Source: a bacterium (GTDB taxonomy: Bacteria > Patescibacteriota > Minisyncoccia > Phycocordibacterales > Phycocordibacteraceae). From it: a stretch of DNA of 64,000 nt. Position 1 is the stretch's first letter; each line of letters starts with the position of its first letter. Made by a program: the position numbers and the translations under genes. Where the stretch lies: NCBI GenBank assembly GCA_037200965.1, contig JBBCGK010000001.1, forward strand, positions 384,001 to 448,000, read 5' to 3'. Below are positions 2,384 to 51,624 of this stretch, piece by piece. The notes beneath the pieces were generated by a model. It did no database searches. It saw only the letters and a list, made by a program, of their open reading frames with translations, and had not been told where the DNA came from.

Positions 2384-3424
2384 TTATCCGAACGCGCGCA
2401 CTTCGCGCACGACAACGATGCCGGTAGCGTCAAAAACTTTTTTCGCGATCATATCGGCGAACGCTTCCACATCCGCCGCGGTCGCGCCGTCCTCGGCGAC
2501 GAGCACGAGCGCTTGCTTCTCGAAAAGGCGCACGCGCTTCTCCCGGAAACCCCGGAGTCCGAGTACGTGATCCAGAAGCCACGCAAGCGGCACCTTAAGA
2601 TCGCTGGTTTCCGGCATGGAGAACAGCGGCATTTCCGGGTAGCGCGCCTGAAGCGCACGGGCATGTGTTTCGGGAAGGATCGGGTTCTCGAAAAACGACC
2701 CCGCAGTACCTTCCTTCGAGAGGTCGGGGAACTTATCGGCACGAATGGACAGGATGGCCGTCCGGATATCGGCGAGCGTCGGGGCCGGATTCTCCCCGAG
2801 CACCCGCGCGACATCTTTATAGGAGCGGTTCGGATCCCGGTACGAGAAATTCGGCGCCGGAACGCTCGAAAGCGTGAACGTCGCGCGCATGATGACGTGT
2901 TTCCTTCCCTCGTGCTTAAAGAAACTGTCGCGGTATCCGAACCGGCATTCATCGCGGGTGTATATTCGGGACGCAAGGAGCGCAGTATCGAACGCTTCCG
3001 CGCGTACAAGCGTCCCGGAGAGCGCGGCCCCGTACGCGCCTATATTTTGTACGACGGCGCCGCCGACGGTACCCGGAATCCCGGAAAGATTCTCAAGACC
3101 CCACAGGCAGCGCAGGACGCATATGCGTACGAGTTCGTCCCACAGGATTCCCGCTCCGGCCGTGACTTCGACGCTGCCGCTTCGAAGCTCAGAAAACGTG
3201 ACGCCCGGAATCCGCGGACGAAGGACGACGCCTGGGTATCCCGCATCGCGCGCAAGCACGTTCGATCCTCCGCCTAGTATGAAAACGGGAAGGCCGAGCT
3301 TGCGGGCTTCAAGAACCGCTGTTTCGATATCTTCTCCGGTATCGCAGTCGATGACGAAGCGCGCGTCACCGCCGATCCTGAGGGTGGTGAGATTCCGAAG
3401 CGAGACGTTCTCCCGGATCGTCAT
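2384..3424 (-). CDS. murB: UDP-N-acetylenolpyruvoylglucosamine reductase MurB
   Basis: 346 aa with FAD-binding PCMH motifs (FILGGGSNVL, GIPGTVGGAVVQNIGAYG) and the C-terminal MurB domain. 4-bp overlap with the upstream gene. Confidence 0.85.
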   Translation of the reverse strand: MTIRENVSLRNLTTLRIGGDARFVIDCDTGEDIETAVLEARKLGLPVFILGGGSNVLARDAGYPGVVLRPRIPGVTFSELRSGSVEVTAGAGILWDELVRICVLRCLWGLENLSGIPGTVGGAVVQNIGAYGAALSGTLVRAEAFDTALLASRIYTRDECRFGYRDSFFKHEGRKHVIMRATFTLSSVPAPNFSYRDPNRSYKDVARVLGENPAPTLADIRTAILSIRADKFPDLSKEGTAGSFFENPILPETHARALQARYPEMPLFSMPETSDLKVPLAWLLDHVLGLRGFREKRVRLFEKQALVLVAEDGATAADVEAFADMIAKKVFDATGIVVVREVRAFG

Positions 3425-5607
3425 TGGCCCTGGGCCGCCATCGCGTCGATCTGCAGGAGAAGATCCCGGCCCTGGGCCGCGGCCTCGGGATGCGCCGCGA
3501 TGCCTTCCTGGACCGCCTTGCGCGCGCTTGAAAGGTCGCGCGCGTTCACGTATCCGGCCGCGAGGCGGAACCAGGCGTTCGCCGCCCCGTTCTGATCGAT
3601 CACGTTCTGCGCCAGGCTTCGTATAAGGCGCGGCCAGTCCTGAAAACGATAGTACGCGAGAATGAGTTTCTCGTTCGCCACGCTTGTCGTCCCGAATGCG
3701 TCCTGGAGAATGGCATCCGCTGCGACGCTGTCGCCGGTGATGACGCTTCCGACCGCCGCATAGACGGCAAGATCGCTGAAGGAAGGATCGAGCGCATAGG
3801 CTTTCTCATACGCTTCCTTCGCACCGGCCATATCTCCCGCTTCCCAGAGGGTATTTCCTTCTTCTATATATATGCCCTGCTTCCTCGGCGACAGCGCCTC
3901 GGCGGCTTCATCTTGTTTGAGTGCGTTCTGGCTGTCCCCGGCGACCCGATAGGCGAGGGCGTATTCGAGGCGCAGGCGCGGATCAAGCGGCAGACGTTCG
4001 ACGAGCTCTCCCATCTTGGCGATCGCGAAAGAGGCAATCGCGGCTTTATCCTCCTGACCCGTGCTTTCGCTGCTTATGGCGCTCACTGAAAACGACACGA
4101 GCTGTTCGTTTATCTCCTGGGAAGCGAACGCCGGGTGCGTGAGCAAATCCCTGAACGAGGCAAGCTGCCCCGCAGGCCCTTGCGCCGAAGGCGTGATGGC
4201 TTCGATAAGCTGGCTCCCCGCCCGGATACCGGGCACGTTCACGAACCAGAGAACGGCGAGGAGCAGCACCGCGGCCACCGGGAGAACCATGGTCGACGCC
4301 GACTCGTCGGCGACCTCCGGCAGGCGTTCAAGGTACGGAACGGGGCGGGCGCTCTTCCCGTGGATATACGCGATGACTAGAACGAACAGGAGCGAGGATA
4401 TGAGATTGTCGAAGACGAACATCGAATGCACCCCGTACGCAACCAGAAGCGACGACAGGCCGACTTTCTCCGCGATCGTGAATTCGGGACGCCGCAGCAG
4501 GAGCCAGAATGCGGCGATGAAGAGGCTTATATACAGAAGGAACGCCGGAAGACCGCCCGCGACGAGCCAGTCGACGAAGGAATTATGCGCCCGGTCAAAC
4601 CACGCCTCCTGGTCATACAGCGACGGGCGATAGAATTCGCTGAAGACGTAGTTGTAGCCTTCCTGACCCCAGCCGAGCACCGGATGCACGAGGAATCCTT
4701 CGTACGCCATGTGCCAGAGCGCGAAGCGCGTCGAGCCCTGGTCGATCGAAATGGACGCGATGCGCGCAAGCGCGGAATTGTTCGTAACGAACGACGAATC
4801 GCGTACCAAGAAGAATCCGCCGCACAGGACGAGGACTGCGATAACCGCTCCCGCGCCGTACCGCCGAGTTTTCCCGCCCGACAACAGCGCGGCGAGAAGA
4901 CCGGCAACCGCGGCTCCGATGACGACCCCGAGGACCGCCCCGCGCGTCTCGGTCTTAAAGAGGATATAGGTCTCAAAGAGGATAAGCAGCGGGAGCGCAT
5001 ACCGGAGCCACGAACGGCGTTCGATCTCGCCCCGCAGAAGCCAGGCGGCTATGCATATATGGAACAGGAGATATACCGCAAGATACGTGGCGTTCCCGAG
5101 AGATGCGTCCAGACGCCCGCTTCCCTGGTGTATCGCGGCGACGCCCAGAAGCTGCAGGACGCCGTGGAGGCACACGATCACGGAAACCCCGAGCGAGGTA
5201 AGCCAGAGCCGGCGCCACAGATCCTTGGCTGACAGTACCGAGCTCGCTACCACAAAAAGGCCGAGAAGATGGACGAGCGTGATCCATCCCTCCATCCGCT
5301 CGAAGTTGCTCCAGAGCGCCTTTTCGGGGTTTATCGCGAAGCAGTCGGCGAGGAACATCCAAAGCACGAATACGGCGAAGAGCGCGCCAAGCCAGGAGAA
5401 GCGCGGGCGGTATCGCTTGTCGGCAAACGCGAGCACCGCCCATCCGGCGAGCGCGATCTCGACCAGGATACGGAAGGCGAACGCCTTTCCGGTTATGAAC
5501 GGGAAATACAGGCTGTTCGTGACCAAAAGCGGAACAAAGGGCAGAAGGAAGAGCGCCCCGACCGCCGTCCACCACCCTATCTGAGCTGCCGTCCCTTTCA
5601 CATGCAT
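3421..5607 (-). CDS. O-antigen ligase (Wzy_C/WaaL-like) family polytopic membrane protein with C-terminal TPR repeats
   Basis: About 12 TM segments plus a Wzy_C-like motif (RAHNSFVDWLVAGGLPAFLLYISLF); the C-terminal ~250 aa is TPR-like repeats. A TATAGT -10 lies 9 nt upstream of the ATG. Confidence 0.55.
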   Translation of the reverse strand: MHVKGTAAQIGWWTAVGALFLLPFVPLLVTNSLYFPFITGKAFAFRILVEIALAGWAVLAFADKRYRPRFSWLGALFAVFVLWMFLADCFAINPEKALWSNFERMEGWITLVHLLGLFVVASSVLSAKDLWRRLWLTSLGVSVIVCLHGVLQLLGVAAIHQGSGRLDASLGNATYLAVYLLFHICIAAWLLRGEIERRSWLRYALPLLILFETYILFKTETRGAVLGVVIGAAVAGLLAALLSGGKTRRYGAGAVIAVLVLCGGFFLVRDSSFVTNNSALARIASISIDQGSTRFALWHMAYEGFLVHPVLGWGQEGYNYVFSEFYRPSLYDQEAWFDRAHNSFVDWLVAGGLPAFLLYISLFIAAFWLLLRRPEFTIAEKVGLSSLLVAYGVHSMFVFDNLISSLLFVLVIAYIHGKSARPVPYLERLPEVADESASTMVLPVAAVLLLAVLWFVNVPGIRAGSQLIEAITPSAQGPAGQLASFRDLLTHPAFASQEINEQLVSFSVSAISSESTGQEDKAAIASFAIAKMGELVERLPLDPRLRLEYALAYRVAGDSQNALKQDEAAEALSPRKQGIYIEEGNTLWEAGDMAGAKEAYEKAYALDPSFSDLAVYAAVGSVITGDSVAADAILQDAFGTTSVANEKLILAYYRFQDWPRLIRSLAQNVIDQNGAANAWFRLAAGYVNARDLSSARKAVQEGIAAHPEAAAQGRDLLLQIDAMAAQGQ

Positions 5608-13800: not shown

Positions 13801-13893
13801 GCCGAACACTATATACCGGGCTGTGGGCGAAATGAAGGCGCGTCTTGCGGAAACGTTAAAGCGTAAAGGAATACGATCGACTGCTAGAAGCCA

Positions 13894-13920
13894 CTAGACG
13901 CTAAAGGCTGTATACAAGCC
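13894..13920. repeat. 27-bp direct repeat, copy A (24/27 identical to 15333-15359)
   Basis: Copy A is ctagacGctaaAGgctgtatacaagcc and copy B is ctagacActaaGTgctgtatacaagcc. On the minus strand copy A encodes only ...GLYTAFSV*, a remnant of the last 8 codons of an immunity-like gene homologous to the 15333-15542 gene. Confidence 0.6.
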
Positions 13921-14335
13921 GTATTGGATCGGTAAGCTATTTCAGTGAACTTTTACATCTGGAAAGTATTGAGTATTTGGTAGCAGAAAACCGCCTTTCA
14001 GCGGTTTTCTGGGAAGGTGTGGCCGTAATGCGCTGTTTGGTCTTGCCTTAACTCAGTCATTCCTCTGACCTCAAGCTCTCATCGTAGGACAGCTTTTTCC
14101 AAGTCCCCTATTTCTTCTTACGCTTTGTGTCGCCAAGGGCGGCACCTGCGACTGACTTCTGGACTGTACGCTTTTGCGGCTTCTTCAGCAACTTCGATGC
14201 CATACTTGCCACACGTTTGCTCGTGTTTCCCATGATAGTGCTTGCCGAGGAGGATTAGTAGAAGTGACCACCTTCTATCCTCGGTCTCTACATTTTACTC
14301 TTGTAAGAATTTACAGCGAGGTGGATAACTGATTC

Positions 14336-14869
14336 CTACAGGAATGCGATGAAACCCAGTAAACCAAGTCCTACCGCGAGAAGGATGAAGGTTGGAACCA
14401 CACTGAAATTAATATAGCGTCTCTCAGATTTCCTTAGCTCGTCAACAGACTCAAACTGCTGTAGTTTCGGATTCAGAATATTTTTCCTTGAATATACATA
14501 CCTGCCCCGATTCCATGATAGACGTCTCCCATGTCTAAATGTAAAGATGATTGCAAAGAGCGATGCAAGAAACATTGCCAGAGTTAAAAGACCGAAAAAC
14601 AGAGTCCATATACCTTCAAAACCATCTGTATTGATTAGCTTATCCGTCACTTCAAAATAAAGGTAGGTTATGACATATACAATGAGTATGTCAGGCAGCT
14701 TCCTTAGTGAGATATATGCTATGTATCCGTACCCAAAGGGAGAGATGGTCCATCCTTTAATATATTTCAGATCATTATCTGAAAGCTGATTCTCATTTCT
14801 TACCTGCTTTCTTTCAAACCATGTAAAGCTTGACAGGTATTCGCGAGTCTCCTTAAATCCAAATTTCAT
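14336..14869 (-). CDS. hypothetical membrane protein in the AT-rich island (orphan immunity-protein candidate)
   Basis: 177 aa, 3-4 TM helices, low-GC codon usage unlike the host; lies between the two 27-bp repeats. Confidence 0.45.
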   Translation of the reverse strand: MKFGFKETREYLSSFTWFERKQVRNENQLSDNDLKYIKGWTISPFGYGYIAYISLRKLPDILIVYVITYLYFEVTDKLINTDGFEGIWTLFFGLLTLAMFLASLFAIIFTFRHGRRLSWNRGRYVYSRKNILNPKLQQFESVDELRKSERRYINFSVVPTFILLAVGLGLLGFIAFL

Positions 14870-14973
14870 AACCTGCTTAAATTCACTTCACTATAATAAA
14901 TCCTTGTCAGGATTAATTCCGCTAAGATTAATTTCCTCTAGGTCAATCTGAAAAGCTCTTGCTTGCTGTTGCA

Positions 14974-15309
14974 TTAGAGAAATAATCTCATATACAGCCA
15001 TCTGGTAGCCTCTGTCATAGTCTGTAGTCTCCGTATTGATTTTCTTATTGGAATTTCGCCAAGTTTGTATTCAATAATGTCGCCAGTACCTGGAAGTGCA
15101 AATTCCTCAAGTAAGAATCGAGGAATATAGTGATGATTCGATTGTTCGTAATCATTGATATAAACTCCTTTTTGTAGGATTCCATATATATAAAATACTA
15201 CTTTAGATAAAAGACGACTTCTTATCCTCCTATTTAGCATTACCATGATTAGCTTATTTGCTAATCTAAGTCTCGCGATGTTTATACGCTTTACTAGCAC
15301 CGATATCAT
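14974..15309 (-). CDS. hypothetical protein in the AT-rich island (possibly a truncated orphan module)
   Basis: 111 aa, AT-rich, no recognisable motif; the start is uncertain. Confidence 0.3.
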   Translation of the reverse strand: MISVLVKRINIARLRLANKLIMVMLNRRIRSRLLSKVVFYIYGILQKGVYINDYEQSNHHYIPRFLLEEFALPGTGDIIEYKLGEIPIRKSIRRLQTMTEATRWLYMRLFL

Positions 15310-15332
15310 TAAGTAGGGACTGTTAGGTCTTT

Positions 15333-15359
15333 CTAGACACTAAGTGCTGTATACAAGCC
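15333..15359. repeat. 27-bp direct repeat, copy B (stop codon plus 24 nt at the 3' end of the 15333-15542 gene)
   Basis: See copy A. A local tandem duplication tacaagcca/tacaagcc sits next to it. Confidence 0.6.
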
Positions 15360-15542
15360 ATACAAGCCAATAACTATAAAGAATAGAGCGGATAATCTGA
15401 TCATTACCAGCATCCACTTTGGTTCTTGATTATTTTTTATAGAATAGACACTGCGTGTAAAATTCCAAATTACACCAGGATTTACAATCGATAGGAGACC
15501 GGCGATAAGAAAAATAGAATTTAATATTATTTGAGAAGTCAT
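15333..15542 (-). CDS. small 2-TM membrane protein, putative cognate immunity protein of the RHS C-terminal toxin
   Basis: 69 aa with two hydrophobic helices. It starts 4 nt after the RHS stop codon, and the region is AT-rich like the toxin tip. Confidence 0.55.
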   Translation of the reverse strand: MTSQIILNSIFLIAGLLSIVNPGVIWNFTRSVYSIKNNQEPKWMLVMIRLSALFFIVIGLYGLYTALSV

Positions 15543-15546
15543 ATAG

Positions 15547-18500
15547 TTATCTGTTATTTTTAACCTTATTTTTTGTCTCGGTCGTTGTTGGCTTCGTTGT
15601 AGCTGGTGTTGTCGGAGCAGGCGCGGTTTGAATCATACTTCCAGGAATGATTGGGACATGGACTGTATAGGTTTGCGATACTGCTGCTCCAACGCCAATT
15701 TGCAGGTTATGACTGCTTGAAACATCTTGTTTTGGACCTGTAGCATTAGTTCCATCCTTTACGTTAACAGTTGCTGATTTCGAGTATTTATACCCCACCC
15801 CTACTGCGCCGCCCACACTTTGTTCAACCTGCACCTCAGCGTTTTTTGGCATAGAACCTGATGAGAACCCTCCACCTATCTTTGCTTCCGCTCCAAGCGA
15901 AGGTCCTCCGCCGGCAACTGCGTTAACTCCTTGGTCACTTGCTTCAAAACCTATCTGCACATTGAAGAATCCATATGTTAGACCTCCATTGATATAAACA
16001 TACCAATTACCAGACGGATCCTTATTAATTATTGGATTATTTCGGACATAACTATAGCTATTCAAAGTTTGAGGATCCATCAGAATCTGATTCAATTCTT
16101 GCTGTGTTAGTTCCTTTACCTTCTTTGCATCTCCCATAGCCAAGAAAGATGGGTCTTGTGATAGAAACTGTCCACGTCCCCCGTCGTAATAACGTGCATT
16201 TAGATACGACAAATCAGACTCGTCATCATGGAACTGCCCGATGAAAGTCCGCCCGAGATCGACGGCTCCCGCATCGACCCTCTCGCTCCCGTACGGATAG
16301 TAGTCGAGGGTCTTCGCAAGCTGGCCCGCATCGTCCGAGACGACGTTCGTCGAGCCCAGGTGGTCGGGATGCATATAGCTCGTGGTGGTGGCGGAGCCGT
16401 TTCCTTCGATCGCGGCGACAAGCCCGTCTCCCGCCCAGATATACGCCGTAGTGGTCGCGCCTTGTAGTTCGAAGTATTTATTCGGGTACAGAGTGGCGAT
16501 GCCGCCAGAAACCTTCGCGGCCCTGTTGCCGACATGGTCATAGGCATAGGTGGTGGTCGCGGACCCATCACTTGAAGCGGCGAGGCGGTTGCGGTAATCC
16601 CAGGCGAACGAATCGGGACCGTGGGCGACGACGTTCCCGTCGTTGTCGTAGGAGAGGGTCGTGGACGCGACGGAGGTCGGCGCATGGGGATTCGCGTAGC
16701 CGGTCCCGGCATAGGCATAGGAGCCCTGGCCGGACTTGCCCGTAAGGTTGCCGATGGCGCTGTAGCCGTAGGTCTCGCGATACGGCAGAGATGCGGCGGC
16801 GGTCGTCGAGGCGACCGTCAGGCGGTCGAGATCGTCATAGGCGAACACCGCGCTTTTCGCCGCCTGCGTGTCGGAATAGTCATCGATGCCGGTAACATTC
16901 CCCACGGCGTCATAGGTGAAATAGATGTCCTGGATCGTCGTACCCGACGGCGGCGTTCCGATCACGTAGCTTGCGGCGGCGCTCCAGTCGCTGTCCACGT
17001 CGTGGTCGTCCCATACCCGCATCCGCCAGTAGTACGGGATGCCAGCCGCAAGCGCGTCCCCCGCATAGGTAATGTCCTCCGTGCGCGTGCCGGGGGCGGT
17101 GGAGCTCGCAAACGGCGCCTTCGCGCTGTCCCAAACCGGAGCGCTCCAAGCGCCCGTCGAGGTCGCCACCTGTATCTGGAAATACCGCGCGGAATCGCCG
17201 GAGTCCGGATCGGCATACACCGCGGAGAACTCGGGGAAATAATCCGTGATCCCGGCCGGGTTCGTAAGCCCTTCGGTCAGGAGCGAGGCGGGCGCGCCCG
17301 GCGGAAAGGACACGGGAATCTCGAAGCTCGCCACGGAACTCCACTCGCTTTGCGTATCGGCATCCCAAAGCTTGATCCGCCAATAATACGGCGTGGACGA
17401 GGCGAGGGCCGGTCCCGCGTATGAGATGTCCGGTATGCGCATGCCGGACGGCGTCGAGCTTGCAAGGGCCGTCATGCCAGTGTCCCAATAGACGCTTGAG
17501 AACGCGCTTGAGGCGGCGAGCTGGATCCGGTATGCGAGGGCCAGATCGCCCGCGTCCGCGTCCGTAAAGAGGGCCGAAAACTCCGGCGTAAGGTCGGTGA
17601 CGTGCACGGGATCCGTCTGCCCTTCGGTAAGAAGGGCCGTCGGCCCGGCAGGAGCCGTGTCGTAGACAACGACGAGCTTCGGATCGTGGCCCGTACCCGT
17701 ATCGTCCGCCGAAGCGAAATTCGCGACGAGTTCGGTCGCGTCGGTGGGAGCGATATTGTTGAAGTCGTTATACGTCCGGACGGAAAGCTTCGTGACGCCG
17801 GTCCTCGAAATGGAAGCCAGCCCGTTCGCGTTAAGCGCGATCGGTTCGTACGTGTTGCCGGCATACGTTCCGTCGCTTACGCCATAGGACGTGCTGCCGA
17901 TCATGTCGAAGTCCTGGCTTACGAGGCTCGCAGCGGACGAAGGCGAAGAAGAAGCGACATAGAGCCGTTTCTCGGAGCCGCCCGCCGTGACGCCGGTCAT
18001 GTAAAGGCTGAGGGTCGCGTCGATGACCGGAACGCTGTCGGGAAGCGAGGACGTGTCGAAAAGAAGGAACCCGCGCCTGATGCCGTAGTCAAGCGCCCCG
18101 GAAGCGACCCCGAGCTCGTCGCTCACGATGATCTCAGCAGCGTCGGAATTGGCGTTGATACCGTTCGTCGCGTTATGAACCGAGTTCCAGTTCGAGCTGT
18201 GATCCTTATACACGTATCCGTCGACCGACGACGTCTCGGGGTCAGGGTCGGGATAGAACGTACCTGTGTCCGCGCGCGCTCTTTTGGGGAACAGGAAGCC
18301 GACGATCGCTTCAAGGATGCCGGGGCTCCCGCCCTGCGCCCGTTTCTGGGCTTCATAGGAGTCCGCGGTGGTGATGCCGTAATCGGCGACCCACCACCCG
18401 CCTTTTTCGTCTTCGTAATACTGGGGATCGCCGGAAACGATTTCGGCGACGAACGTGTTCGGCTTGTCGGTCGCGAAAACGCGCGCGTGCTTGGTTCGCT

Positions 18501-21500
18501 GGCTTTTAATCTCTCCTTTCACCGCCACGCCCGCTGCCTTTGCCCGCGCCCGGGTCTCCTCGCTTGCCGGAAGATCGTCCACGTTCTCGTCCGTCCGGTA
18601 GGCATAGCGGACGATGCCGTCCGAAATTTCCCTGGTGCCAAGATGCCGGTCAACCGGCGCGCGCAACCGGAGCTCCGGCGCGTCGAATGGAAGCGCCTTC
18701 AGGGAAGCGTACGAGTCCCCGTCCGGTGCCGCTCTCTCATCCGTCGTGGTCGAGGCCGTTTCGCCAACTGCCGCTTCCGGAACGAGCGATTCCCCGAGAG
18801 GCTGCGTAGTCGAGGCCGCACGGGACTCCGTTTCCGGAACCTCCTCCGTCGTAGCGGCTCCTTCTTCCGGCGAGATCGCATCATGCCCGTCGAGATCGGA
18901 AGGAACGATCGGCTCGACGGACGCTTCTTCGCCAGCCTCTTCCTGGCCCATACCCAAAAACGCGAGCAGATACGGACTGTTCGACGCAAGCGCGAGACGG
19001 CCGTTTCGTATGCCAAGCAATTTCCCGAAAGCGCCCGCCTGCTCCGAGTCTTCGCCATCTCCATCCGTGCGGAGAGAATCTCCCGCCTGGGGAAGGACCG
19101 TGCGGATGTTCGTGAGCCGATAGAGCTGGTCCGCCGCGTAGGTGTAGGAACTCTCGGTTCCGTTCCCCAGCGCCGCATACTTGACCTTCCCGGTCGGCGC
19201 ATAATCGAAGTCGCTCACGACATCGGCAAAAGTCCCCGCTTCTCCCTGCCGCTGTGCGATCCTCTCGAGCTGCCCGGCGCTGTTGTATGTGTACCGGGCC
19301 TGTATCCCGTTCGGATATCCGAGCGTCGCAAGGTTCCCGAGCCGGTCGTACCCGTACCGCGTTATCGCGGATACGCCGCCGATAGTGTCGGTTTCCGTCT
19401 CCATCCGCCCGAGCGGATCGTATGCGAAAGCCGCCGTCGTTTCGGTCGTCGATGCCGTGCAGAGAAGTCCCTTTCCTTCCGTACAGGCGTCATAGGTATA
19501 GGCGACCTCGATACTTGGGCTCCCGGCGAAATCTTCGGCGAGGGGCCGGTTGAGATCGTCATAGGTGAATACCGTCGTCTGCCCCTTCGGATCGGTCGAG
19601 GATGCCAGATTCCCGGAAGCATCGTAGTTGTATGACCAGATGCCGTAGGTCGCGTCCGCGCCCGCATGGAGGTCTGTCGCGCTCAGGCGGCGGCCGAGGC
19701 CGTCATAAGCAAAGTCGCGGATATTCCCCTGCGCGTCCGTTATCTTCGTCAGGTTCTTATTGCCGTCGTACTCATACGCGGTCGTCTGCGAGCTCCCGCC
19801 GACATGCTCGACAACTGACGCCAAATTCCCGTAAGCATCCTTGACGAGATCCTTCGCGCGCCCGAGCGCGTCGGTGACGGTCGTTTTCCAGTCGTCATAG
19901 GCGTATTCCGTCTCCCCGACGGCGTTCTCGACCGAACTCACGCGCTTCAGCGGATCGTACGCATAGCGCGTGCGAAGCGGGAGGGCGGGCGGCGAGCTGG
20001 TGCCGGTGAAACCGGTCCCGGAGGCGAAGTAGGGCTGGGATTCGCTTACGAGAAGCCCGCGTCCGTCGTACGCGAACGTGCGTACCGCGTACCGGTTCGA
20101 TCCTTCGGCTTCGGCAAGCTCTTCGACTTTCCTGCCGAAACCGTCGAAGTACGTATAGGAATCGGCCGAAACGGCGTCGTCGAGATAGTCGGTCCGCTTG
20201 GCGCGGCGCGGCATCCCGGTATCGGTATAGGCATACGCGCTTTTCATAACCAGCGCCGAAGGCTCCTCCGTGTCCGGCTGCCACTCTTCGAGCACCCGGT
20301 CGAGCGGATCATACACGGTATGGTACGTCCGGCCGTTCGGATTCGTCGTCTGCCGCGGCTTGCCCGAGGAATAGTCGTAGAGATACGCGGTGCTCTGCCC
20401 GAGCGCATTGGTAGTCGTCGCCGGATACAAGCCATAGGGATCGTACTCGTAGATCGTCTGCTTATCGCGCGGATCCTTTTCGGTGAGTACGAGCCCGCGG
20501 GCGTCGTAGGTTTTTTCGGTATCGATCGTCGTCGAAGCCGCGATCCATGACTCCTGCTTGGTCAGGTTCCCCCTGTTCAGTGAACCGAAAGAAAGCGCGT
20601 CATAGTAGTTTTTCGTCTCCCGCACCGTCGAGCTTGCCTGATCCGTACGCGTCTCTCGCGACAGAAGCGAGAAGGGCGCGGTGGAGCTTGCCGCGTAGGC
20701 ATACGCGGTCGTGAACTTGTCCGTGCCGGTATCGGCAAACGAGCCGTCCGCGCCCGCATTCACCCTTCCCCATTCGACCTTCTGCGTCAGGTTTCCGGCC
20801 CCGTCGTCATACGCGTACGTCTCGGCCTTGTCCGCATGGTCGGAATCCCCGTCGTAGTCGAGCACCGTCATTTGGGTCTTCCTGACGAAGTCCGCCTTCC
20901 CGCCCCGGTTATAAGTTTCCCATTTGTCCACTTCAAGCGAATACAGATGCCCCGCGTCGTCGTACGACTCGCTGCGGTACGCCTTCCCGATCTTCGACTG
21001 GTCGTCGAGATATTCCCCGGTCGAGGTCGCCGAGGCGTCGCCCTGATGGAAGAAGGTTTTCGTAACGTTCCCGGCGGCATCCGTCTTCGTGGTCGTCCCG
21101 AATCCGGCGATGCGCCGGTCGAAGGGGCTGCCAAAATAATACCTGCCGCCCGCATACGCGTAGGAATCGGTCGAAGTCGCCCCGATACCGGCATACCTGC
21201 TTATGCCCTCCGCAGTCTCGAGGTTCACCGGAAGCCCGGGATTGAGCATGGCACCGCCCGCGCCCCGATAGCTTGCGGAAGACTTGTACGACGCGGTAAT
21301 GGCCCCGCCCGCGGGCTCGACGACGCGCGTGAGCAGATCGGCCATGCCTCCGGTGCCGAGATAGACGAAGTTGTAGTTGTGATAATAGCTGCCGCCGATG
21401 GTACCCGAGGTGATGAAATCCACGGGGCCGTTCCCGTCCGCTTCCCCGATGCGCGTTCCGGCATCGAGACCGTTCGCAATGAACGGCGCGGGAAGCGTTC

Positions 21501-23451
21501 GGGCCGGATCGAGCGCCCATCCGGTACCCGTATTGAGGTAGACGGCGTTGCCCGACCATAAGGAATTCGCGCCGTTGAATTCGACCCATGAGTTATAGCC
21601 GATATCGACGAGGCCGTCGTTGTTGAAGTCGGCGAGACGGGTGCTCGTGCCGCCGCCGGGCGGGATTGGCACGGCCCACTCGGTGCTCGTGGCCCACCCC
21701 GACCCGGTGTTGAGATACACCATATCGGTCGGGCCGTACTGGGAATCGGAACCTCCGATAACGTCGTCGAGCCCGTCGTTGTTCACGTCGGCTATGCGCG
21801 CGCCGGTATCCGCCCGGAGCCGCGCGGAGAAAAGCACCGGTATCTGCCACGACGGCGCGTACGTCCAGCCGTGGCCGTTGTTGAGGTACACCTTCTTCGT
21901 ATACGTTACGCTCCCGCCGTTCGGATTGTTCACATACGAGCGGACGATATCGGCGGGGCCGTCGCCGTTCACGTCACTGAACCGGGTGCCGACGTCCTTA
22001 TTATTCTCCACAATCGTCTCCGGATTGGTCCATACGGTACTCGTCGCCCAGCCGCTGCCGGTATTGAGAAACACCGACGAATTACACACGAAATCCGGTA
22101 GCAGATCTCCGTTCACGTCCACTATGCGGGTCCCTTTGTCGCGTATCGATGAACTTCCGTATTCGGTGATGATGCAGGGAGCGTTCCAGAGCGTGTTTTC
22201 AGCCCATCCGGTACCGGTGCCAAGATAGGTATGCTTGGTTATCACGGGGCTGCTGTACTTGGATTCGACAAGGTCGGTGAGCGAATCGCCGTTCACATCG
22301 GCGAGCGTCACTCCGCGATCGCCCTGATCGTTCGTGAATTCGACCGGCACCGTCCAGCCGGGACTGGCCCACGCGGGACTCGATGTCGCATAGGAGAATG
22401 CGGCCGCGGGAAGCGAGATTACCGCCCCGCCGTCGTCCCGGCCCGATTCGGTAACGCCCGCGAGGAGGAGGCGCGAGCCGTTGTCGCCGTGCGTATAGGC
22501 GAAATCGTAGCTCCGAACCCACTCCCCGTTCACCTTCGTCCGTATCTGGTCGATCTTATACCGTGTCCGCACACCAAAGCCGCCGGGAGACGTCGTCGCG
22601 GTCGCGGTCGCCCGAAGGCTCTTCGCGAACTCGACCGAAAAGACTCCGGGCGCTCCGCCGCTCCCGGTATAGCGGATGGATTCGGGATAGATCTGCCCCG
22701 AATCTTTCGCGTAGCCGTACGTGACGGTATTTCCGTTCGCATCCATGGTTTCCTGGAGCATCCACTTGTACACTCTGCCCGAATCTCCCGGGTCATCCTG
22801 CCTGGCGGCGGTCGAGGTGCCGAACCTGTACACGACGCCGTTTTTATCCGTCACCATCCAGATGTTTCCGGCAAGCGCATAGCGCAGATAAGAACCGTCA
22901 TCGCTGCGGGCGAGAAAGACCGAGGAATCCGACGTGGTCGCAAGCTCTCCCGAAAGCGAGGAATAGAAATGCGGCGAGGTCGTGCTATAGAGATTTTGCA
23001 TCCCTTCGACGTTATACCGTTCTATGTACGGTATGGAGATATTCCAGCCGTATCCGAAAGCGCTCGCCTCGTCGCGGTCCTGACTCGAATAGGACAGGGA
23101 AAGATGCGGCTCCATACCGTTTCTTCCGGGCGGAACGGTGATCGCGTAGTCGTACGTAAAAGCACCTGTTGCGGCCGATTGATCGGCGCGGGTACGTTCC
23201 GGGCCGGAATCCCGCAGGTATGGCGGCAACTGATCATCGCCGTCCCCCAAACTGAGAGTCTGCGCTCCCCCGCCCTGAAGAAAGGCATCGCCCTCCGTAT
23301 CCGGCATAGCCGATGAAACATCCTCGGCCGGATCTTCCGACGCCGCCAAAACGGGAGCGCAGAAGAGCGGCGTGAAAGAAAGAATCAGCGATGCTGCCAC
23401 GAACTTGTTGAAGGATATTACCCAGGTCGCCCGTTTCGAGGGCTTTGCCAT
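15547..23451 (-). CDS. giant secreted RHS/YD-repeat polymorphic toxin: SpvB-like N-terminal domain, FG-GAP beta-propeller repeats, YD/RHS shell, RHS core, variable C-terminal toxin domain
   Basis: From N- to C-terminus the protein shows: a signal peptide (MAKPSKRATWVISFNKFVAASLILSFTPLFCAPVLAA); an SpvB/TcB motif (TGAFTYDYAITVPPGRNGMEPHLSLSYSS...GYGWNISIPY); at least 6 FG-GAP-like repeats (DVNGDxxxDxV); dozens of YD repeats (YEYDPYG, YAYDGRGLL, YNYDASGNL...); an RHS core end (ARYYDGGRGQFLSQDP...NSYSYVRNNPIINKDPSGNWY); and a ~150-aa Gly-rich tail. The start is chosen at ATG 23451, giving a good signal peptide; the ORF-track start at 23556 adds 35 aa. Confidence 0.85.
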   Translation of the reverse strand: MAKPSKRATWVISFNKFVAASLILSFTPLFCAPVLAASEDPAEDVSSAMPDTEGDAFLQGGGAQTLSLGDGDDQLPPYLRDSGPERTRADQSAATGAFTYDYAITVPPGRNGMEPHLSLSYSSQDRDEASAFGYGWNISIPYIERYNVEGMQNLYSTTSPHFYSSLSGELATTSDSSVFLARSDDGSYLRYALAGNIWMVTDKNGVVYRFGTSTAARQDDPGDSGRVYKWMLQETMDANGNTVTYGYAKDSGQIYPESIRYTGSGGAPGVFSVEFAKSLRATATATTSPGGFGVRTRYKIDQIRTKVNGEWVRSYDFAYTHGDNGSRLLLAGVTESGRDDGGAVISLPAAAFSYATSSPAWASPGWTVPVEFTNDQGDRGVTLADVNGDSLTDLVESKYSSPVITKHTYLGTGTGWAENTLWNAPCIITEYGSSSIRDKGTRIVDVNGDLLPDFVCNSSVFLNTGSGWATSTVWTNPETIVENNKDVGTRFSDVNGDGPADIVRSYVNNPNGGSVTYTKKVYLNNGHGWTYAPSWQIPVLFSARLRADTGARIADVNNDGLDDVIGGSDSQYGPTDMVYLNTGSGWATSTEWAVPIPPGGGTSTRLADFNNDGLVDIGYNSWVEFNGANSLWSGNAVYLNTGTGWALDPARTLPAPFIANGLDAGTRIGEADGNGPVDFITSGTIGGSYYHNYNFVYLGTGGMADLLTRVVEPAGGAITASYKSSASYRGAGGAMLNPGLPVNLETAEGISRYAGIGATSTDSYAYAGGRYYFGSPFDRRIAGFGTTTKTDAAGNVTKTFFHQGDASATSTGEYLDDQSKIGKAYRSESYDDAGHLYSLEVDKWETYNRGGKADFVRKTQMTVLDYDGDSDHADKAETYAYDDGAGNLTQKVEWGRVNAGADGSFADTGTDKFTTAYAYAASSTAPFSLLSRETRTDQASSTVRETKNYYDALSFGSLNRGNLTKQESWIAASTTIDTEKTYDARGLVLTEKDPRDKQTIYEYDPYGLYPATTTNALGQSTAYLYDYSSGKPRQTTNPNGRTYHTVYDPLDRVLEEWQPDTEEPSALVMKSAYAYTDTGMPRRAKRTDYLDDAVSADSYTYFDGFGRKVEELAEAEGSNRYAVRTFAYDGRGLLVSESQPYFASGTGFTGTSSPPALPLRTRYAYDPLKRVSSVENAVGETEYAYDDWKTTVTDALGRAKDLVKDAYGNLASVVEHVGGSSQTTAYEYDGNKNLTKITDAQGNIRDFAYDGLGRRLSATDLHAGADATYGIWSYNYDASGNLASSTDPKGQTTVFTYDDLNRPLAEDFAGSPSIEVAYTYDACTEGKGLLCTASTTETTAAFAYDPLGRMETETDTIGGVSAITRYGYDRLGNLATLGYPNGIQARYTYNSAGQLERIAQRQGEAGTFADVVSDFDYAPTGKVKYAALGNGTESSYTYAADQLYRLTNIRTVLPQAGDSLRTDGDGEDSEQAGAFGKLLGIRNGRLALASNSPYLLAFLGMGQEEAGEEASVEPIVPSDLDGHDAISPEEGAATTEEVPETESRAASTTQPLGESLVPEAAVGETASTTTDERAAPDGDSYASLKALPFDAPELRLRAPVDRHLGTREISDGIVRYAYRTDENVDDLPASEETRARAKAAGVAVKGEIKSQRTKHARVFATDKPNTFVAEIVSGDPQYYEDEKGGWWVADYGITTADSYEAQKRAQGGSPGILEAIVGFLFPKRARADTGTFYPDPDPETSSVDGYVYKDHSSNWNSVHNATNGINANSDAAEIIVSDELGVASGALDYGIRRGFLLFDTSSLPDSVPVIDATLSLYMTGVTAGGSEKRLYVASSSPSSAASLVSQDFDMIGSTSYGVSDGTYAGNTYEPIALNANGLASISRTGVTKLSVRTYNDFNNIAPTDATELVANFASADDTGTGHDPKLVVVYDTAPAGPTALLTEGQTDPVHVTDLTPEFSALFTDADAGDLALAYRIQLAASSAFSSVYWDTGMTALASSTPSGMRIPDISYAGPALASSTPYYWRIKLWDADTQSEWSSVASFEIPVSFPPGAPASLLTEGLTNPAGITDYFPEFSAVYADPDSGDSARYFQIQVATSTGAWSAPVWDSAKAPFASSTAPGTRTEDITYAGDALAAGIPYYWRMRVWDDHDVDSDWSAAASYVIGTPPSGTTIQDIYFTYDAVGNVTGIDDYSDTQAAKSAVFAYDDLDRLTVASTTAAASLPYRETYGYSAIGNLTGKSGQGSYAYAGTGYANPHAPTSVASTTLSYDNDGNVVAHGPDSFAWDYRNRLAASSDGSATTTYAYDHVGNRAAKVSGGIATLYPNKYFELQGATTTAYIWAGDGLVAAIEGNGSATTTSYMHPDHLGSTNVVSDDAGQLAKTLDYYPYGSERVDAGAVDLGRTFIGQFHDDESDLSYLNARYYDGGRGQFLSQDPSFLAMGDAKKVKELTQQELNQILMDPQTLNSYSYVRNNPIINKDPSGNWYVYINGGLTYGFFNVQIGFEASDQGVNAVAGGGPSLGAEAKIGGGFSSGSMPKNAEVQVEQSVGGAVGVGYKYSKSATVNVKDGTNATGPKQDVSSSHNLQIGVGAAVSQTYTVHVPIIPGSMIQTAPAPTTPATTKPTTTETKNKVKNNR

Positions 23452-23542
23452 TACGGGTATCGTAGCATCCATTATCGAGGGCTTGTGGATATCGGGAGAA
23501 TCGGAAACTTTCGTTTTTATTGACGATACGCAGCGCAACATA

Positions 23543-23557
23543 TATGATATTATCATA
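23543..23557. promoter_or_regulatory. 15-bp perfect palindrome TATGATA-T-TATCATA, putative operator of the RHH antitoxin operon
   Basis: Seen directly; lies 20-34 nt upstream of the antitoxin ATG and overlaps -10-like TACTAT/TATAAG hexamers. Confidence 0.45.
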
Positions 23558-26289: not shown

Positions 26290-27237
26290 TCGCACTGCAT
26301 ATCGAACACTCCCTAATACTAAGGAGGATATGCGCAAAGAACCCAGGGAAATCATCAGGAAATTGAAGAAGTCGGGAGGAAAGGTGCGCGAAACCGCACG
26401 GACACTCGGCATATCTCCGGGCACGGTGGTGTTCTGGAAGAAGCGAGCCCGGAGCATCCGGAGCCGGTTTGCGCTCTCGACGCGGCAGCTTGTCCGCAAG
26501 TCGACAAGACCGAAGCGTCTTCGCCGCAGGACGCTCTCGGGAGAGCGGGCTGAGGCGCTCTTGCGCCTGCGCGAAGAGAAAGGATACGGGGCGCGCAAGC
26601 TCAAAGTGCTGCTCGGCCTCTCCGAGCACCCGGCGACCATCCATCGCTTCCTCAAAGCGAAAGGTCATATACTGGAAGGCGCGTCATACCGACGGCCGAG
26701 ATATCAGGAGACCACGCATATGTATCTCAAGAACGTGACCGCGCCCGGGAAGCTTCAGATGGATGTGAAGTACGTGACGCCCGAGCTGTCGGGGCTCCCG
26801 CATACCCTGTATCTGTATGCCGTCATTGATATTTGGAGCCGATACAAAGCTGGCGTCATCTTCCCCGAGCTCGTGCAGGACTTCTCCATCGAGGCCCTGC
26901 GGACGGTTTCGCTGCCGTTCGTACCGGATTTCGTGCAGACCGACAACGGCCTTGAGTTCCAGAGCCGCTTCCGCGCCTTCGTGACTGGGGAACTCGGCTG
27001 GAAGCATCATTTCATCCACAAGGCGAACCCGAATGAGAACGCGGTCATCGAGCGGTCATTCCGCACCGACGAGGAGGAGTTCTTCTGGCGCTTCATGAAA
27101 AAGCCCGCTTCAATGGAGGACCTCAATGCCCAGTATCAGGCCTTTCTGCGCGAATACAACCACGAACGGCCGCACCTTGGCATCGAGCTCAAGACGCCGT
27201 ATGCTCGACTGCAAGAGTGTTCGATATGTTAGTGCGA
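26290..27237 (+). mobile_element. IS481-family-like insertion sequence (~948 bp) with 22/23-bp imperfect terminal inverted repeats and a probable 6-bp TTAAGG target-site duplication
   Basis: IRL is TCGCACTGCATATCGAACACTC (26290-26311) and IRR is GAGTGTTCGATATGTTAGTGCGA (27215-27237). Their reverse complements differ only by G vs AA. Flanking TTAAGG lies at 26284-26289 and 27240-27245. Confidence 0.7.
26330..27232 (+). CDS. DDE transposase (N-terminal HTH + rve integrase core), IS481-like
   Basis: 300 aa. The DDE triad context reads LYLYAVIDIWSR ... VQTDNGLEF ... AVIERSFRTDEEE. A canonical SD (AAGGAGG) lies 3-9 nt upstream of the ATG, unlike most host genes. Confidence 0.8.
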   Translation: MRKEPREIIRKLKKSGGKVRETARTLGISPGTVVFWKKRARSIRSRFALSTRQLVRKSTRPKRLRRRTLSGERAEALLRLREEKGYGARKLKVLLGLSEHPATIHRFLKAKGHILEGASYRRPRYQETTHMYLKNVTAPGKLQMDVKYVTPELSGLPHTLYLYAVIDIWSRYKAGVIFPELVQDFSIEALRTVSLPFVPDFVQTDNGLEFQSRFRAFVTGELGWKHHFIHKANPNENAVIERSFRTDEEEFFWRFMKKPASMEDLNAQYQAFLREYNHERPHLGIELKTPYARLQECSIC

Positions 27238-48182: not shown

Positions 48183-48237
48183 AGGTCTAGTATACCTTCT
48201 GTGCGGGCCCCGGGGGCGTTCTCCACAGGGAATTTTG

Positions 48238-48310
48238 TGCACGCTCTAGGATTCGAACCTAGGACCGCTCGAGTATCAGTCGAGTGCTCTACCAACTGAG
48301 CTAAGCGTGC
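48238..48310 (-). tRNA. tRNA-Ile (anticodon GAT)
   Basis: The reverse complement folds as a cloverleaf: acceptor GCACGCT/AGCGTGC, D-arm GCTCAGTTGGTAGAGC, anticodon stem CTCGA/TCGAG with loop CTGATAC, and T-arm CTAGGTTCGAATCCTAG. Discriminator A; CCA not encoded. Confidence 0.85.
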
Positions 48311-48933: not shown

Positions 48934-49824
48934 GATACTTAGGCAAGTTCACGTTCCCACGCAGCGAGCGGATTTCCCGCACTGCGCGAGCCCCCGGCGT
49001 GCATTTTCGATTTCAACACAGCGATCTTCCTAACCCCTTCTTTCGTGTGATGGGCTTTCGCAATCGCGAGCTCGAGGACTTGGTAAAATAGCTCAAAGTC
49101 CTTTACGCGCTTGCTTTCAAGCGGGTGCCTTTTGAAAAAAGGCACCACGACTTGCTTCAAGAGATCGTAGCTGAAGATCTCGAACCGATAATTATCCCGT
49201 TGATTCTTCCGATATTCGCGTTGGAAGTATATCTTTCCGCATCCCCAGAATTTCTGTACTTTCTCAAGAAGAGGAAGTTCGTCTTCCCGCATCTTGATGT
49301 AGTAACGGCACTGCACCCGGTAACTTACCGAGCCATGCTCTTTCTTAGGTGGAAGCAGATAGACACAGAAACTCCCTTCGCCATCGGTCAAACCGACGAT
49401 GTAATCAGCGGATAGCACGCCTGGTTTTGTCCTTCTCGCGTTCTTCTTGTGGAAGAGCGCAATACTACGACGCAGCTGACTCCCAGTGTCTTTTGATTCC
49501 TGCATACCGACATAGTATCAATGAGTTGACACTACGGGTATTCAAGAACCGTTGCCGTTGTGGACAACTGGGTCTCCCCGGGTTACGCATACTTCTATTC
49601 CATACATCCTCTACGGGCCTTTCTTCGGCACCTTCCCTATCCTCACCGCCCACTGATAGGTCGATGCGGCCCTTTTTGTGTACAGGCTGTGTTTTGCTTC
49701 CAGATCCTTCAGTCCATACCTTACGGCATTGGACCTATCTTTCGGCTACGCTCCCCACGACGAGTGAGGAGGAGTGGATTTGAACCACTTAGAACTATGC
49801 GCTGCCGGGCGCATTTATTTGTGA
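48934..49824 (-). mobile_element. intervening sequence (group-I-intron-like, ~890 bp) inserted near E. coli 16S position ~1396 (CTTGTAC|ACATTCGCCCGTCA)
   Basis: Conserved 16S sequence stops after TTGTAC at 49825 and resumes at 48933. The insert encodes a LAGLIDADG ORF. Confidence 0.7.
48939..49505 (-). CDS. LAGLIDADG homing endonuclease (single-motif type)
   Basis: 188 aa with the motif YIVGLTDGEGSF; the ORF ends at the insert boundary. Confidence 0.8.
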   Translation of the reverse strand: MQESKDTGSQLRRSIALFHKKNARRTKPGVLSADYIVGLTDGEGSFCVYLLPPKKEHGSVSYRVQCRYYIKMREDELPLLEKVQKFWGCGKIYFQREYRKNQRDNYRFEIFSYDLLKQVVVPFFKRHPLESKRVKDFELFYQVLELAIAKAHHTKEGVRKIAVLKSKMHAGGSRSAGNPLAAWERELA

Positions 49825-50395
49825 GTACAAGACTCGAGAACGTATTCACCGTAGTATGGCTGACCTACGATTACTAGTGATTCCGGCTTCATGAGGTCGG
49901 TTGCAGACCTCAATCCGTACTGGGGGCGGTTTTCGGGATTAGCTCCACCTTGCGGTCTTGCATCCTTCTGTACCGCCCATTGTAACACGTGTGCAGCCCA
50001 GGGTATCAAGGGACATGCTGATCTGGCGTCATCCCCACCTTCCTCTCCCGTGAGGGAGCAGTCTCGCCTGACATATATAACAGGCAACGGGGGTTGCGTT
50101 CGTTACCCCACTGAAGGGAACAGTTCAAACCACGAACTGACGACGACCATGCATCACCTGTCCAGCACCCTCGAAGGCTCCGTCCCTTTCGGGTCGGATG
50201 CAGCTGGATTTCTAACCCTGGTAAGGTTCTTCGCTTGCCGACGAATTAAGCCACATGTTCCACCACTTGTGCGAGTCCCCGTCTATTCCTTTGAGTTTTA
50301 AGCTTGCGCTCGTACTACCCAGGCGGCTCGCTTATCGCGTTAGCTTAGCCCCACAGAGGGTCGATACTCCGTAGAGCGAGCGAGCAACGTTTAGG

Positions 50396-50427
<32 letters not shown>

Positions 50428-50689
50428 ATCCCCTGGCTTTCGTGTGTGAGCGTCAGGAACGTACCAGTCTATTGCCTTCGCCTTTGGTGTTCCCCATGAT
50501 ATCAACGGATTTCACCCCTACACCATGAGTTCCATAGACCTCTTACGCCCTCGAGCCGTACCGTTTCCCGTGCGGACCGGAAGTTGAGCTCCCGGATTTT
50601 ACGCGAGACTAATACGGCCGCCTTGACACCCTTTACGCCCAGTGATTCCGGATAATGCTCGGGGCCTCTGTATTACCGCTCCTGCTGGC

Positions 50690-51624
50690 CATCGTGTGTG
50701 GCATGCCGCACGGGCATGCCGCTCATATCGCTATGAGGATCGGACTATATCATCACCCACCAATACTGATGGGGCTCGGCGTGTAGTCTCTGAGGGGTCA
50801 AAGTATATATTCCGATGATCAGAAGGAAGCTTGTACCTGAAACAGGGCAGGATGTAAGGGGCGACGGTTCTTGTAAACGCGTCGCGTCCTTCTTTCCCGA
50901 TATACAGTTTCGGATACCGCTTCCCGCGGCACAGCGACAAATAGGTTTTTGCCGCGATGCCGAATCTCTCTAATAACAGCGCTTGCAGTCGCTTCACCTC
51001 CGATTCCGTGAAAGAATCAGTACTGATGTGGTACGCATAATGGGATTTTGCTCGATAATCGAGCCTCCCATCATCCATGAACCACACCGCGAGCGTGAGC
51101 GGCGACCGGAACAATTCGGTGATATTTCCAGGAACGACCTTCTCGCGTCCCGCGTAGAAGATTTTGCGCATGTCTTCGAGGTTCTCGAAGAAACGCGTTC
51201 CGAAATACCACTGTTTCGTATCCGGTCTTTGCTTCGGAGGAGTTTTGACGAGATGCGCGAAGTGACTATAAAGCCACACTACATACTCCTTTCGTTCCTC
51301 CGATTGCTTTACCTGCAATCGGGTGCCTCGATAGCCGTTAAACTCGAGATTTCCATCTCCGAGCATGAGGCCTACGAGCACATCCCGTTGTTGCTTCGAG
51401 AGCGCACAGATCATCTTCACAATTATACTCGACTTCCCTGCTGATTGTCTCTTGGGATCTGATTTTGATTTCAAAGAAATCTAAACCAGACGCAGTCCAC
51501 AAGAGAGTTCCAGCATATAGCCAAGTTTTCGATCTCGATTTCTCGAGAAAGCTGCACGCGGTAACGAACGGTTCGTGAGAACCGTTCGATTTGCTCCAAT
51601 GCGCAGAGCCACCTGCGCACGTGT
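50690..51624 (-). mobile_element. intervening sequence (~935 bp) inserted in the 16S 515-region (AACTCTGT|GCCAGCAGGAGCGGTAATAC)
   Basis: The exon sequence ends at 51625 and resumes at 50689. The flanking universal-primer site reads GCCAGCAGGAGCGGTAATAC rather than GCCAGCAGCCGCGGTAATAC. Confidence 0.7.
50731..51474 (-). CDS. LAGLIDADG homing endonuclease (double-motif type)
   Basis: 247 aa with VGLMLGDGNL and VWFMDDGRL motifs. Confidence 0.8.
   Translation of the reverse strand: MKSKSDPKRQSAGKSSIIVKMICALSKQQRDVLVGLMLGDGNLEFNGYRGTRLQVKQSEERKEYVVWLYSHFAHLVKTPPKQRPDTKQWYFGTRFFENLEDMRKIFYAGREKVVPGNITELFRSPLTLAVWFMDDGRLDYRAKSHYAYHISTDSFTESEVKRLQALLLERFGIAAKTYLSLCRGKRYPKLYIGKEGRDAFTRTVAPYILPCFRYKLPSDHRNIYFDPSETTRRAPSVLVGDDIVRSS

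Follow-up and report, generated by a model that had tools for sequence, protein, structure and literature searches.

The question raised by the 64,000-nucleotide stretch of contig JBBCGK010000001.1 analyzed here (assembly GCA_037200965.1; the whole stretch is hereafter called the window) is what is encoded by the AT-rich 3′ end of its large RHS gene (15547–23556, minus strand; 2669 amino acids (aa) in the list of open reading frames (ORFs)), and whether that end forms a functional pair with the 69-aa gene that follows it (15333–15542, minus strand). A sequence-only reading had proposed a horizontally exchanged, membrane-disrupting toxin tip built on a glycine zipper, followed by its immunity gene. 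The analysis described below favors an exchangeable RHS tip and immunity cassette whose tip acts on membranes, a reading to which we give a probability of about 0.6. Taken separately, the identification of the two genes as a toxin tip with its cognate immunity cassette is highly probable, and the odds that the tip works as a membrane permeabilizer are roughly even. The tip-and-immunity cassette of RHS genes is a well-known type of system; what is new is a tip family that has no Pfam or NCBIfam profile, the Vap-like fold predicted for it, and the proposal of DUF6199 as an immunity family.

Base composition of the RHS gene and the probable junction in its core

Base composition was followed both as sliding GC content and as the GC content of third codon positions (GC3), the latter because it takes out the effect of amino-acid composition. 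GC3 of the RHS core is 0.752 ± 0.065 (34 windows of 70 codons) and falls in the last three 70-codon windows of the gene to 0.31, 0.36, and 0.30 (z = −6 to −7), with a sharp switch that codon-by-codon values place at about codon 2451, or position ~16206 of the window. Sliding GC lies at 0.60–0.66 over most of the RHS gene and at 0.33–0.48 over ~14250–16200, and regional values are 0.615 for the RHS core, 0.43 for the tail, 0.33 for the 69-aa gene, and 0.34 and 0.39 for two further reading frames, ORF111 and ORF177. The resulting island is the sole 500-nt stretch with a GC content below 0.47 in the 64 kb; it covers the 69-aa gene, ORF111, and ORF177 and then passes through a zone of intermediate GC up to ~13900.

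The AT-rich end that had been described for the RHS gene and the gene behind it is therefore real, and the GC plot that had been suggested as a check does not show a uniform gene, with its sharp drop at ~16206. The coordinates originally given for the RHS part, 15547–16200, are accurate; the number of codons affected is ~219 rather than the ~150 first estimated, and the island reaches ~1.4 kb past the 69-aa gene, farther than had been supposed.

The switch falls inside the conserved Rhs-associated core (Rhs_assc_core; aa 2419–2516; 16009–16302, minus strand), which contains an aspartyl-protease motif and is recognized by TIGR03696 at 52.6 bits against a cutoff of 32.5 (E = 5e-14). It is located ~60 codons ahead of the DPSGN motif and within the YLNARYYDGGRGQF block. 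This block is kept in all relatives, and recombination between RHS genes would be expected at a sequence that they have in common, so that the switch at ~16206 may be read as the recombination junction.

The tip family

The core end reads NNPIINKDPSGNW and includes DPSGN (16006–16020, minus strand), identified by inspection as the second DPxG of the RHS autoproteolysis motif. In Tse5, the DPxGL sequence is cut after the Leu by the aspartyl protease of the shell (PMC10684867). By analogy with this DPxGL|I cleavage, the window protein is predicted to be cut after N2517, and its cargo would start at W2518. Both Asp motifs are present (QDPSF...DPSGN), at a spacing of 45 residues instead of the usual 18–19.

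Beyond the predicted cleavage site is a conserved glycine-rich domain, the presumed toxin (aa 2518–2643; 15628–16005, minus strand), which in the alignment runs from the Trp after DPxG to ...VPxx, and then a low-complexity, Pro/Thr-rich C-terminal tail with the basic end KNKVKNNR (15550–15627, minus strand). The tails of the relatives are variable and rich in Ser, Thr, Asn, Gln, and Pro, and most of them end in K or R.

Residues 2517–2669 match no Pfam or NCBIfam family at E ≤ 0.1, and the tip, whether used as a single sequence or as a profile, had no meaningful sequence match among PDB chains (best hit biliverdin reductase, E 0.6). Two candidates for the tail, the MXAN_2562 outer membrane protein barrel and TrbL, were rejected as noise at an NCBIfam E of 0.3. 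Word-indexed homologue searches with the tip, the 69-aa protein, and the seven-member tip alignment returned no relatives, and a scan of genomes with a two-member tip alignment gave no match. When 1.84 billion representative proteins were scanned exhaustively with HMMER, only seven scored at E ≤ 1e-3, the window's own included; the others are P0002, a 3073-aa RHS protein that is 47% identical to the window protein over the tip, and five contig-end fragments in which an RHS core end is followed by ~125 homologous residues. Pattern scans with a three-member alignment added two further loci, L009 from a metagenome and L010 from a metagenome-assembled genome (MAG) of the Myxococcales. In all eight relatives, the tip is preceded by an RHS core end that has the motif NNPxxxxDxxG. 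A tblastn search of the window and the other loci for additional copies of the tip, the immunity gene, ORF111, and ORF177 was negative.

The DUF6199 partner gene

The 69-aa gene is present as the sequence-only reading had stated, beginning 4 nt past the RHS stop codon and encoding two hydrophobic, putatively transmembrane (TM) segments (residues ~1–28 and ~41–69; Kyte-Doolittle >1.6). The positive charges of the protein are found in the loop between the two helices, which by the positive-inside rule probably faces the cytoplasm. It matches DUF6199 (PF19701) at 30.1 bits, above the gathering threshold of 27.7, over profile positions 2–62 of 64, and on the basis of this match, its hydropathy, and synteny it is presumed to be the cognate immunity protein.

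Six loci could be evaluated for a partner gene, namely the window, L001, L003, L004, L009, and L010; L002 (interrupted by an N-run), L005 (cut by the contig end), and P0007 were left out. In 6/6 of them a same-strand, two-TM ORF of 66–88 aa is found 0–33 nt past the stop codon of the tip. That of L001, which is uncalled in the record, is 66 aa long, lies 9 nt past the stop codon, and matches DUF6199 at 47.7 bits (E = 1.3e-12). The partners in L003 and L004 have 80 and 85 aa, and that of L009, with 88 aa, starts right at the end of the stop codon. In L010 a 75-aa ORF overlaps the stop codon (ATGA) and is followed by a second two-TM ORF of 71 aa.

The window and L001 proteins score above the gathering threshold of DUF6199 along its full 64-position model; the family has no assigned function, and the searched literature makes no mention of it. 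On the strength of synteny alone, we propose an immunity role for DUF6199, which would be the first functional context of this family. Small immunity genes of this kind are missed by gene callers. A protein identical to the window RHS protein is found in GCA_015655515.1, the annotation of which calls neither the 69-aa DUF6199 gene nor ORF111.

Exchange of the cassette

The clearest view of how the cassette behaves is provided by L009 (JACCDV010492063.1, 1–4512). The main RHS gene of this locus has an Ntox44 tip (E = 5e-16; 728–1441) and is followed by small ORFs of 149 and 178 aa; downstream of these, a near-identical copy of ~140 codons of the RHS core end is fused to a Vap-like tip (fragment and tip together, 2863–3546), and this orphan is followed by the two-TM ORF of 88 aa and by a 169-aa ORF paralogous to that of 178 aa. 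This is a classical orphan toxin-immunity arrangement, an RHS displacement array, and the presence of the orphan cassette behind an Ntox44-tipped RHS gene indicates that the two tip families are interchangeable at one junction. In L010 (Myxococcales MAG JAQBQF010000275.1, 12–1767) the tip is at the end of the RHS gene, ahead of its two tandem two-TM ORFs, and if this contig has been binned correctly the tip family seems to cross phyla.

The module also has a lower GC content than its surroundings in three GC-rich hosts: 0.33–0.43 vs 0.615 in the window, 0.35–0.40 vs 0.58–0.62 in L001, and 0.54 vs 0.65 in L010. Other members of the family are on contigs of 0.40–0.44 GC, which fits a low-GC donor pool. 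The constant position of the tip after the RHS core end, the pairing with a two-TM ORF, the orphan cassette, and the lower GC content in high-GC hosts together support the earlier proposal that toxin tip and immunity gene have been exchanged horizontally. The window locus likewise has the attributes by which RHS polymorphic toxins are recognized, that is, RHS/YD repeats, a core with the DPxG...DPxG motif, a variable tip at the core end, and a putative immunity gene immediately downstream.

Predicted fold of the tip

The tail is rich in Gly, Ala, and Ser, as had been noted at the outset (G 17%, V 13%, S 10%, A 9%). Segments of the tip alternate strictly between V/I/L/Y/F/A and G/S/T/N/Q, and such a pattern, in which hydrophobic residues take turns with small or polar ones, is the mark of amphipathic beta strands. 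Invariant positions are limited to four Gly, one Ser, one Val, and one Pro; there is no catalytic set among the conserved tip residues and, in agreement with the sequence-only reading, no nuclease or deaminase motif.

AlphaFold2, supplied with the seven-sequence alignment, predicts an all-beta structure with a mean predicted local distance difference test score (pLDDT) of 84.1 and a predicted template modeling score (pTM) of 0.71, four of the five models exceeding 76. A second AlphaFold2 model, of a target that is 27% identical to the window tip, has a pLDDT of 86.5 and a pTM of 0.73, and neither model contains a helix longer than 4 residues. The model of the window tip is an eight-stranded closed beta-barrel that can be superimposed on VapB, VapD, and VapG of Rhodococcus equi, and its top Foldseek match is VapD (probability 0.98; template modeling scores 0.50/0.54).

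Several features of the tip agree with what has been published on the Vap fold. The Vaps are closed eight-stranded barrels with an unusual strand order, 41238567, and the core of the barrel is filled and has no cavity (PMC4089522). They have a glycine-rich, "bald" surface and Gly kinks (PMC4118825). In the tip, the last strand is Gly-rich (xGxGAxxSQxY); the Vap hallmark GGGxGxW is absent, and a Trp follows the strand in 3/7 members. According to the models the tip is thus Vap-like in predicted fold, short of demonstrable membership of the Vap family. The Vap family profile in Pfam (R_equi_Vir) is matched by none of the seven tip members at E ≤ 10, and no sequence homology to VapA, VapB, VapD, or VapG is detectable.

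The setting differs as well. The R. equi Vaps are virulence proteins secreted on their own and directed at host endolysosomes, and no immunity partner goes with them; the tip, by contrast, is the cargo of an RHS protein and is accompanied by an immunity gene. No paper on PF05526/R_equi_Vir and none linking Vaps or VapA to Rhs toxins was found in the searched literature.

Mode of action and alternative explanations

VapA permeabilizes liposomes within minutes and collapses proton gradients (PMC10100859), and it is from this activity that a membrane-acting toxin becomes the best guess for the tip. A Vap-like fold, combined with an immunity protein that is almost wholly embedded in the membrane, makes such an action plausible.

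It is proposed that the window encodes a Sec-exported RHS polymorphic toxin of a bacterium of the candidate phyla radiation (CPR) type, the C-terminal module of which can be exchanged. A low-GC cassette comprising core end, tip, immunity gene, and cargo ORFs would have recombined into the Rhs core at the YLNARYYD block (~16206), replacing an earlier module, the immunity gene of which would survive as a 45-nt remnant at 13879–13923. The RHS shell would enclose the ~150-aa tip until the aspartyl protease of the shell cuts after DPSGN and releases it. The released tip may then fold as a glycine-rich, Vap-like, eight-stranded beta-barrel without catalytic residues and attack the cytoplasmic membrane of a neighboring cell, most likely by permeabilizing it and collapsing the proton gradient in the manner of VapA. 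In the producer, the co-transcribed 69-aa DUF6199 protein, a two-helix hairpin buried nearly wholly in the membrane, would block the tip.

Several observations weigh against this interpretation. The similarity to the Vaps is that of AlphaFold models built from only seven sequences to crystal structures, the E-value of the Foldseek match to VapD is weak (0.096), and profile-profile alignment (hhalign) against six R. equi Vaps from pVAPA1037 gives a probability of 0.2%, which leaves homology with the Vaps unproven. Nor does the fold fix the function, since VapB has the same fold and is weakly membrane-active (PMC10100859). A membrane-located immunity protein does not prove that the target is the membrane. 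On the immunity side, the DUF6199 threshold is passed by the partners in the window and L001, and no DUF6199 score was obtained for those that accompany more distant tips; the partners in L003, L004, and L009 have the architecture of DUF6199 only (hhalign probability 5%). Finally, the window RHS protein is collinear with P0002 from end to end at 30–47% identity, with the tip no more similar than the shell, so that the cassette may have been in this RHS lineage for some time.

The same cassette context would be compatible with a toxin tip that has another target, either a barrel that sequesters a lipid-linked cell-wall precursor or other envelope ligand in the manner of avidin or the lipocalins, or an enzyme that has gone unrecognized, with the membrane-located immunity protein masking the target or the toxin. 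A role in binding ligands or lipid surfaces was in fact proposed in the Vap structure papers, in which detergent was found on the bald spot (PMC4118825, PMC4089522). We nevertheless consider such a target unlikely. The tip has no conserved polar or catalytic residue of the kind an enzyme would call for, the filled core of the Vap barrels offers no cavity for a ligand, and the best-studied Vap permeabilizes membranes.

It is very unlikely that the domain is no toxin at all and instead has a structural or adhesive role at the cell surface, as part of a large CPR envelope protein; the low GC content would then be a local peculiarity of composition, and the small ORF would encode a membrane peptide unrelated to it. 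The small size of the family, the position of the RHS gene among surface-polysaccharide genes, the resemblance of the S/T/P-rich tail to a cell-surface linker, and the collinearity with P0002, tip included, would all suit such a domain. However, the domain is invariably found past the autoproteolytic DPxG, the place of the cargo in RHS proteins, it is interchangeable with Ntox44 in an orphan cassette, a small membrane ORF accompanies it in every locus evaluated, on CPR-like and Myxococcales contigs alike, and the shift in GC3 cannot stem from amino-acid composition.

The membrane action favored here also has to be separated from the glycine zipper on which the sequence-only reading had based it, and the least credible alternative, a helical pore former of the Tse5-CT, EsxX, or CdiA-ionophore type whose helices insert and oligomerize to an ion channel, is very unlikely in spite of the Gly/Ala/Ser-rich tail, the small two-TM immunity protein (as with several such toxins), and the existence of RHS-borne pore formers such as Tse5 (PMC9637101, PMC10684867), because the tip has no segment of helical-TM grade (maximum 19-residue Kyte-Doolittle value 1.04; grand average of hydropathicity −0.28), its GxxxG motifs, which had been taken as a distinctive spacing, occur at the chance level (4 observed vs ~3.7 expected from 17% Gly), its residue alternation is typical of beta strands, both AlphaFold2 models are all-beta, and no PDB chain match of this type was obtained at E ≤ 10, in a copy of the PDB in which the presence of Tse5-CT is unchecked; a structure of Tse5 has been published (PMC10684867).

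Comparison with known systems

The locus shares with the RHS/YD polymorphic toxins, including the Rhs proteins of Escherichia coli and Salmonella, WapA of Bacillus subtilis, and Tse5-Tsi5 of Pseudomonas aeruginosa, the repeats, the DPxG motifs of the core, the tip and downstream immunity gene, the junction at the core end, and, in L009, the orphan cassette. Like WapA, the window RHS protein appears to be exported by the Sec pathway; no VgrG, PAAR, or TcA gene is found among its neighbors and there are no type VI secretion system genes nearby. Unlike those toxins, it has an N-terminal half that resembles TcB (SpvB and an FG-GAP propeller) fused to the shell, an insertion of ~700 aa with Ig-like domains in that shell, the wider Asp-motif spacer described above, a tip family that has not been described before, and a CPR-type host.

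With Tse5-CT/Tsi5, EsxX, and the CdiA ionophores it has in common a polymorphic-toxin C-terminus, a small integral membrane immunity protein, and, as a likely outcome, the loss of membrane potential. Toxins of the Tse5-CT type are hydrophobic and helical, whereas the window tip is modeled as amphipathic and all-beta, with no TM-grade helix.

No paper on Rhs polymorphic toxins in CPR bacteria was found in the searched literature, and the locus would contribute a probably Sec-exported, TcB/TcC-fused RHS weapon to the little that is known of interactions between CPR bacteria and other cells. The tip family that it defines has gone unannotated, with a handful of members among billions of proteins, distributed over CPR-like and Myxococcales contigs.

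If the predicted Vap-like fold is real, it would be the first link of the Vap fold to polymorphic toxins. How this fold acts in the virulence of R. equi is still disputed, and a toxin-immunity pair would provide a simple genetic handle on the way in which glycine-rich barrels of this kind disturb membranes. A more far-reaching idea, which we regard as doubtful, is that the Vap barrel is an ancient and mobile membrane-permeabilizing toxin fold, of which the RHS tips, countered by DUF6199-type immunity, are the interbacterial form and the R. equi Vaps a host-directed offshoot; were it true, the long-debated Vap mechanism would be open to study through a tractable toxin-immunity pair.

RHS protein architecture, island cargo, and neighboring genes

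The public record starts the RHS protein at Met29, which gives 2641 aa. From its N-terminus the protein consists of a Sec-type signal peptide (recognized by eye), SpvB, an FG-GAP propeller, an RHS/YD shell interrupted by the insertion, Rhs_assc_core, and the variable tip. Pfam matches are to RHS_repeat (PF05593; 5e-35, nine stretches), SpvB (7e-19), FG-GAP_3 (1e-9), and Ig_Rha78A_N (2e-29), and the NCBIfam model TIGR01643 matches at 1e-22. The insertion (aa ~1550–2200; window ~16950–18900, minus strand) is made up of an acidic low-complexity part, an unassigned region, and two Ig_Rha78A_N domains (aa 1972–2200), and it may serve as a receptor-binding module displayed on the outside. A comparable insertion is present in P0002, together with a Gly_rich_2 domain.

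Within the island, ORF111 (14974–15309, minus strand) contains the N-terminal motif of DUF4238, NHHYIPRFLLEEF (HHYIPRFLL), and then breaks off (Pfam E = 3e-4, below the gathering threshold; profile positions 1–32 of 281); it is probably gene debris carried as island cargo. ORF177 (14336–14869, minus strand) is a second piece of cargo, AT-rich, with multiple TM segments and no Pfam or NCBIfam match. One of its loops, LSWNRGRYVYSRKNILNPK, bears a weak resemblance to the loop between the two helices of the DUF6199 protein (hhalign P 0.003, probability 10%), and ORF177 may be a second, orphan immunity-like protein.

A 45-nt direct repeat was detected by repeat scan at 76% identity. Copy 2 (15318–15362) comprises the last 9 codons and stop codon of the 69-aa gene and 15 nt downstream, and copy 1 (13879–13923), which is richer in GC and reads ...YGLYTAFSV* on the minus strand, lies 1439 bp downstream of copy 2. 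The 27-nt core of the repeat occurs exactly twice in the 64-kb window, against an expectation of 0. Copy 1 is probably what is left of an older immunity gene that has been displaced, and it would mark the distal edge of the island. A terminator-like hairpin noticed by eye near 13985–14010 was not called by a terminator scan.

The neighbors of the RHS gene are surface-polysaccharide genes, encoding glycosyltransferases, a Wzx-type flippase, and an epimerase, with an insertion sequence (IS) element among them. The transposase of the latter, which is of the IS type (rve_3, HTH_Tnp_1), is encoded at 26330–27232 on the plus strand, within the polysaccharide cluster and 2.8 kb upstream of the RHS gene.

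Farther along the window, tRNA-Ile(GAT) is encoded at 48237–48310, and a 16S rRNA gene (49773–52084, minus strand) is matched in two parts, 49773–50828 and 51562–52084, which are split by an insert of ~733 nt. A 16S rRNA gene interrupted by such an insert is typical of CPR/Patescibacteria, and the insert in the window encodes a LAGLIDADG_2 homing endonuclease (ORF 50731–51474, E = 1.5e-32).

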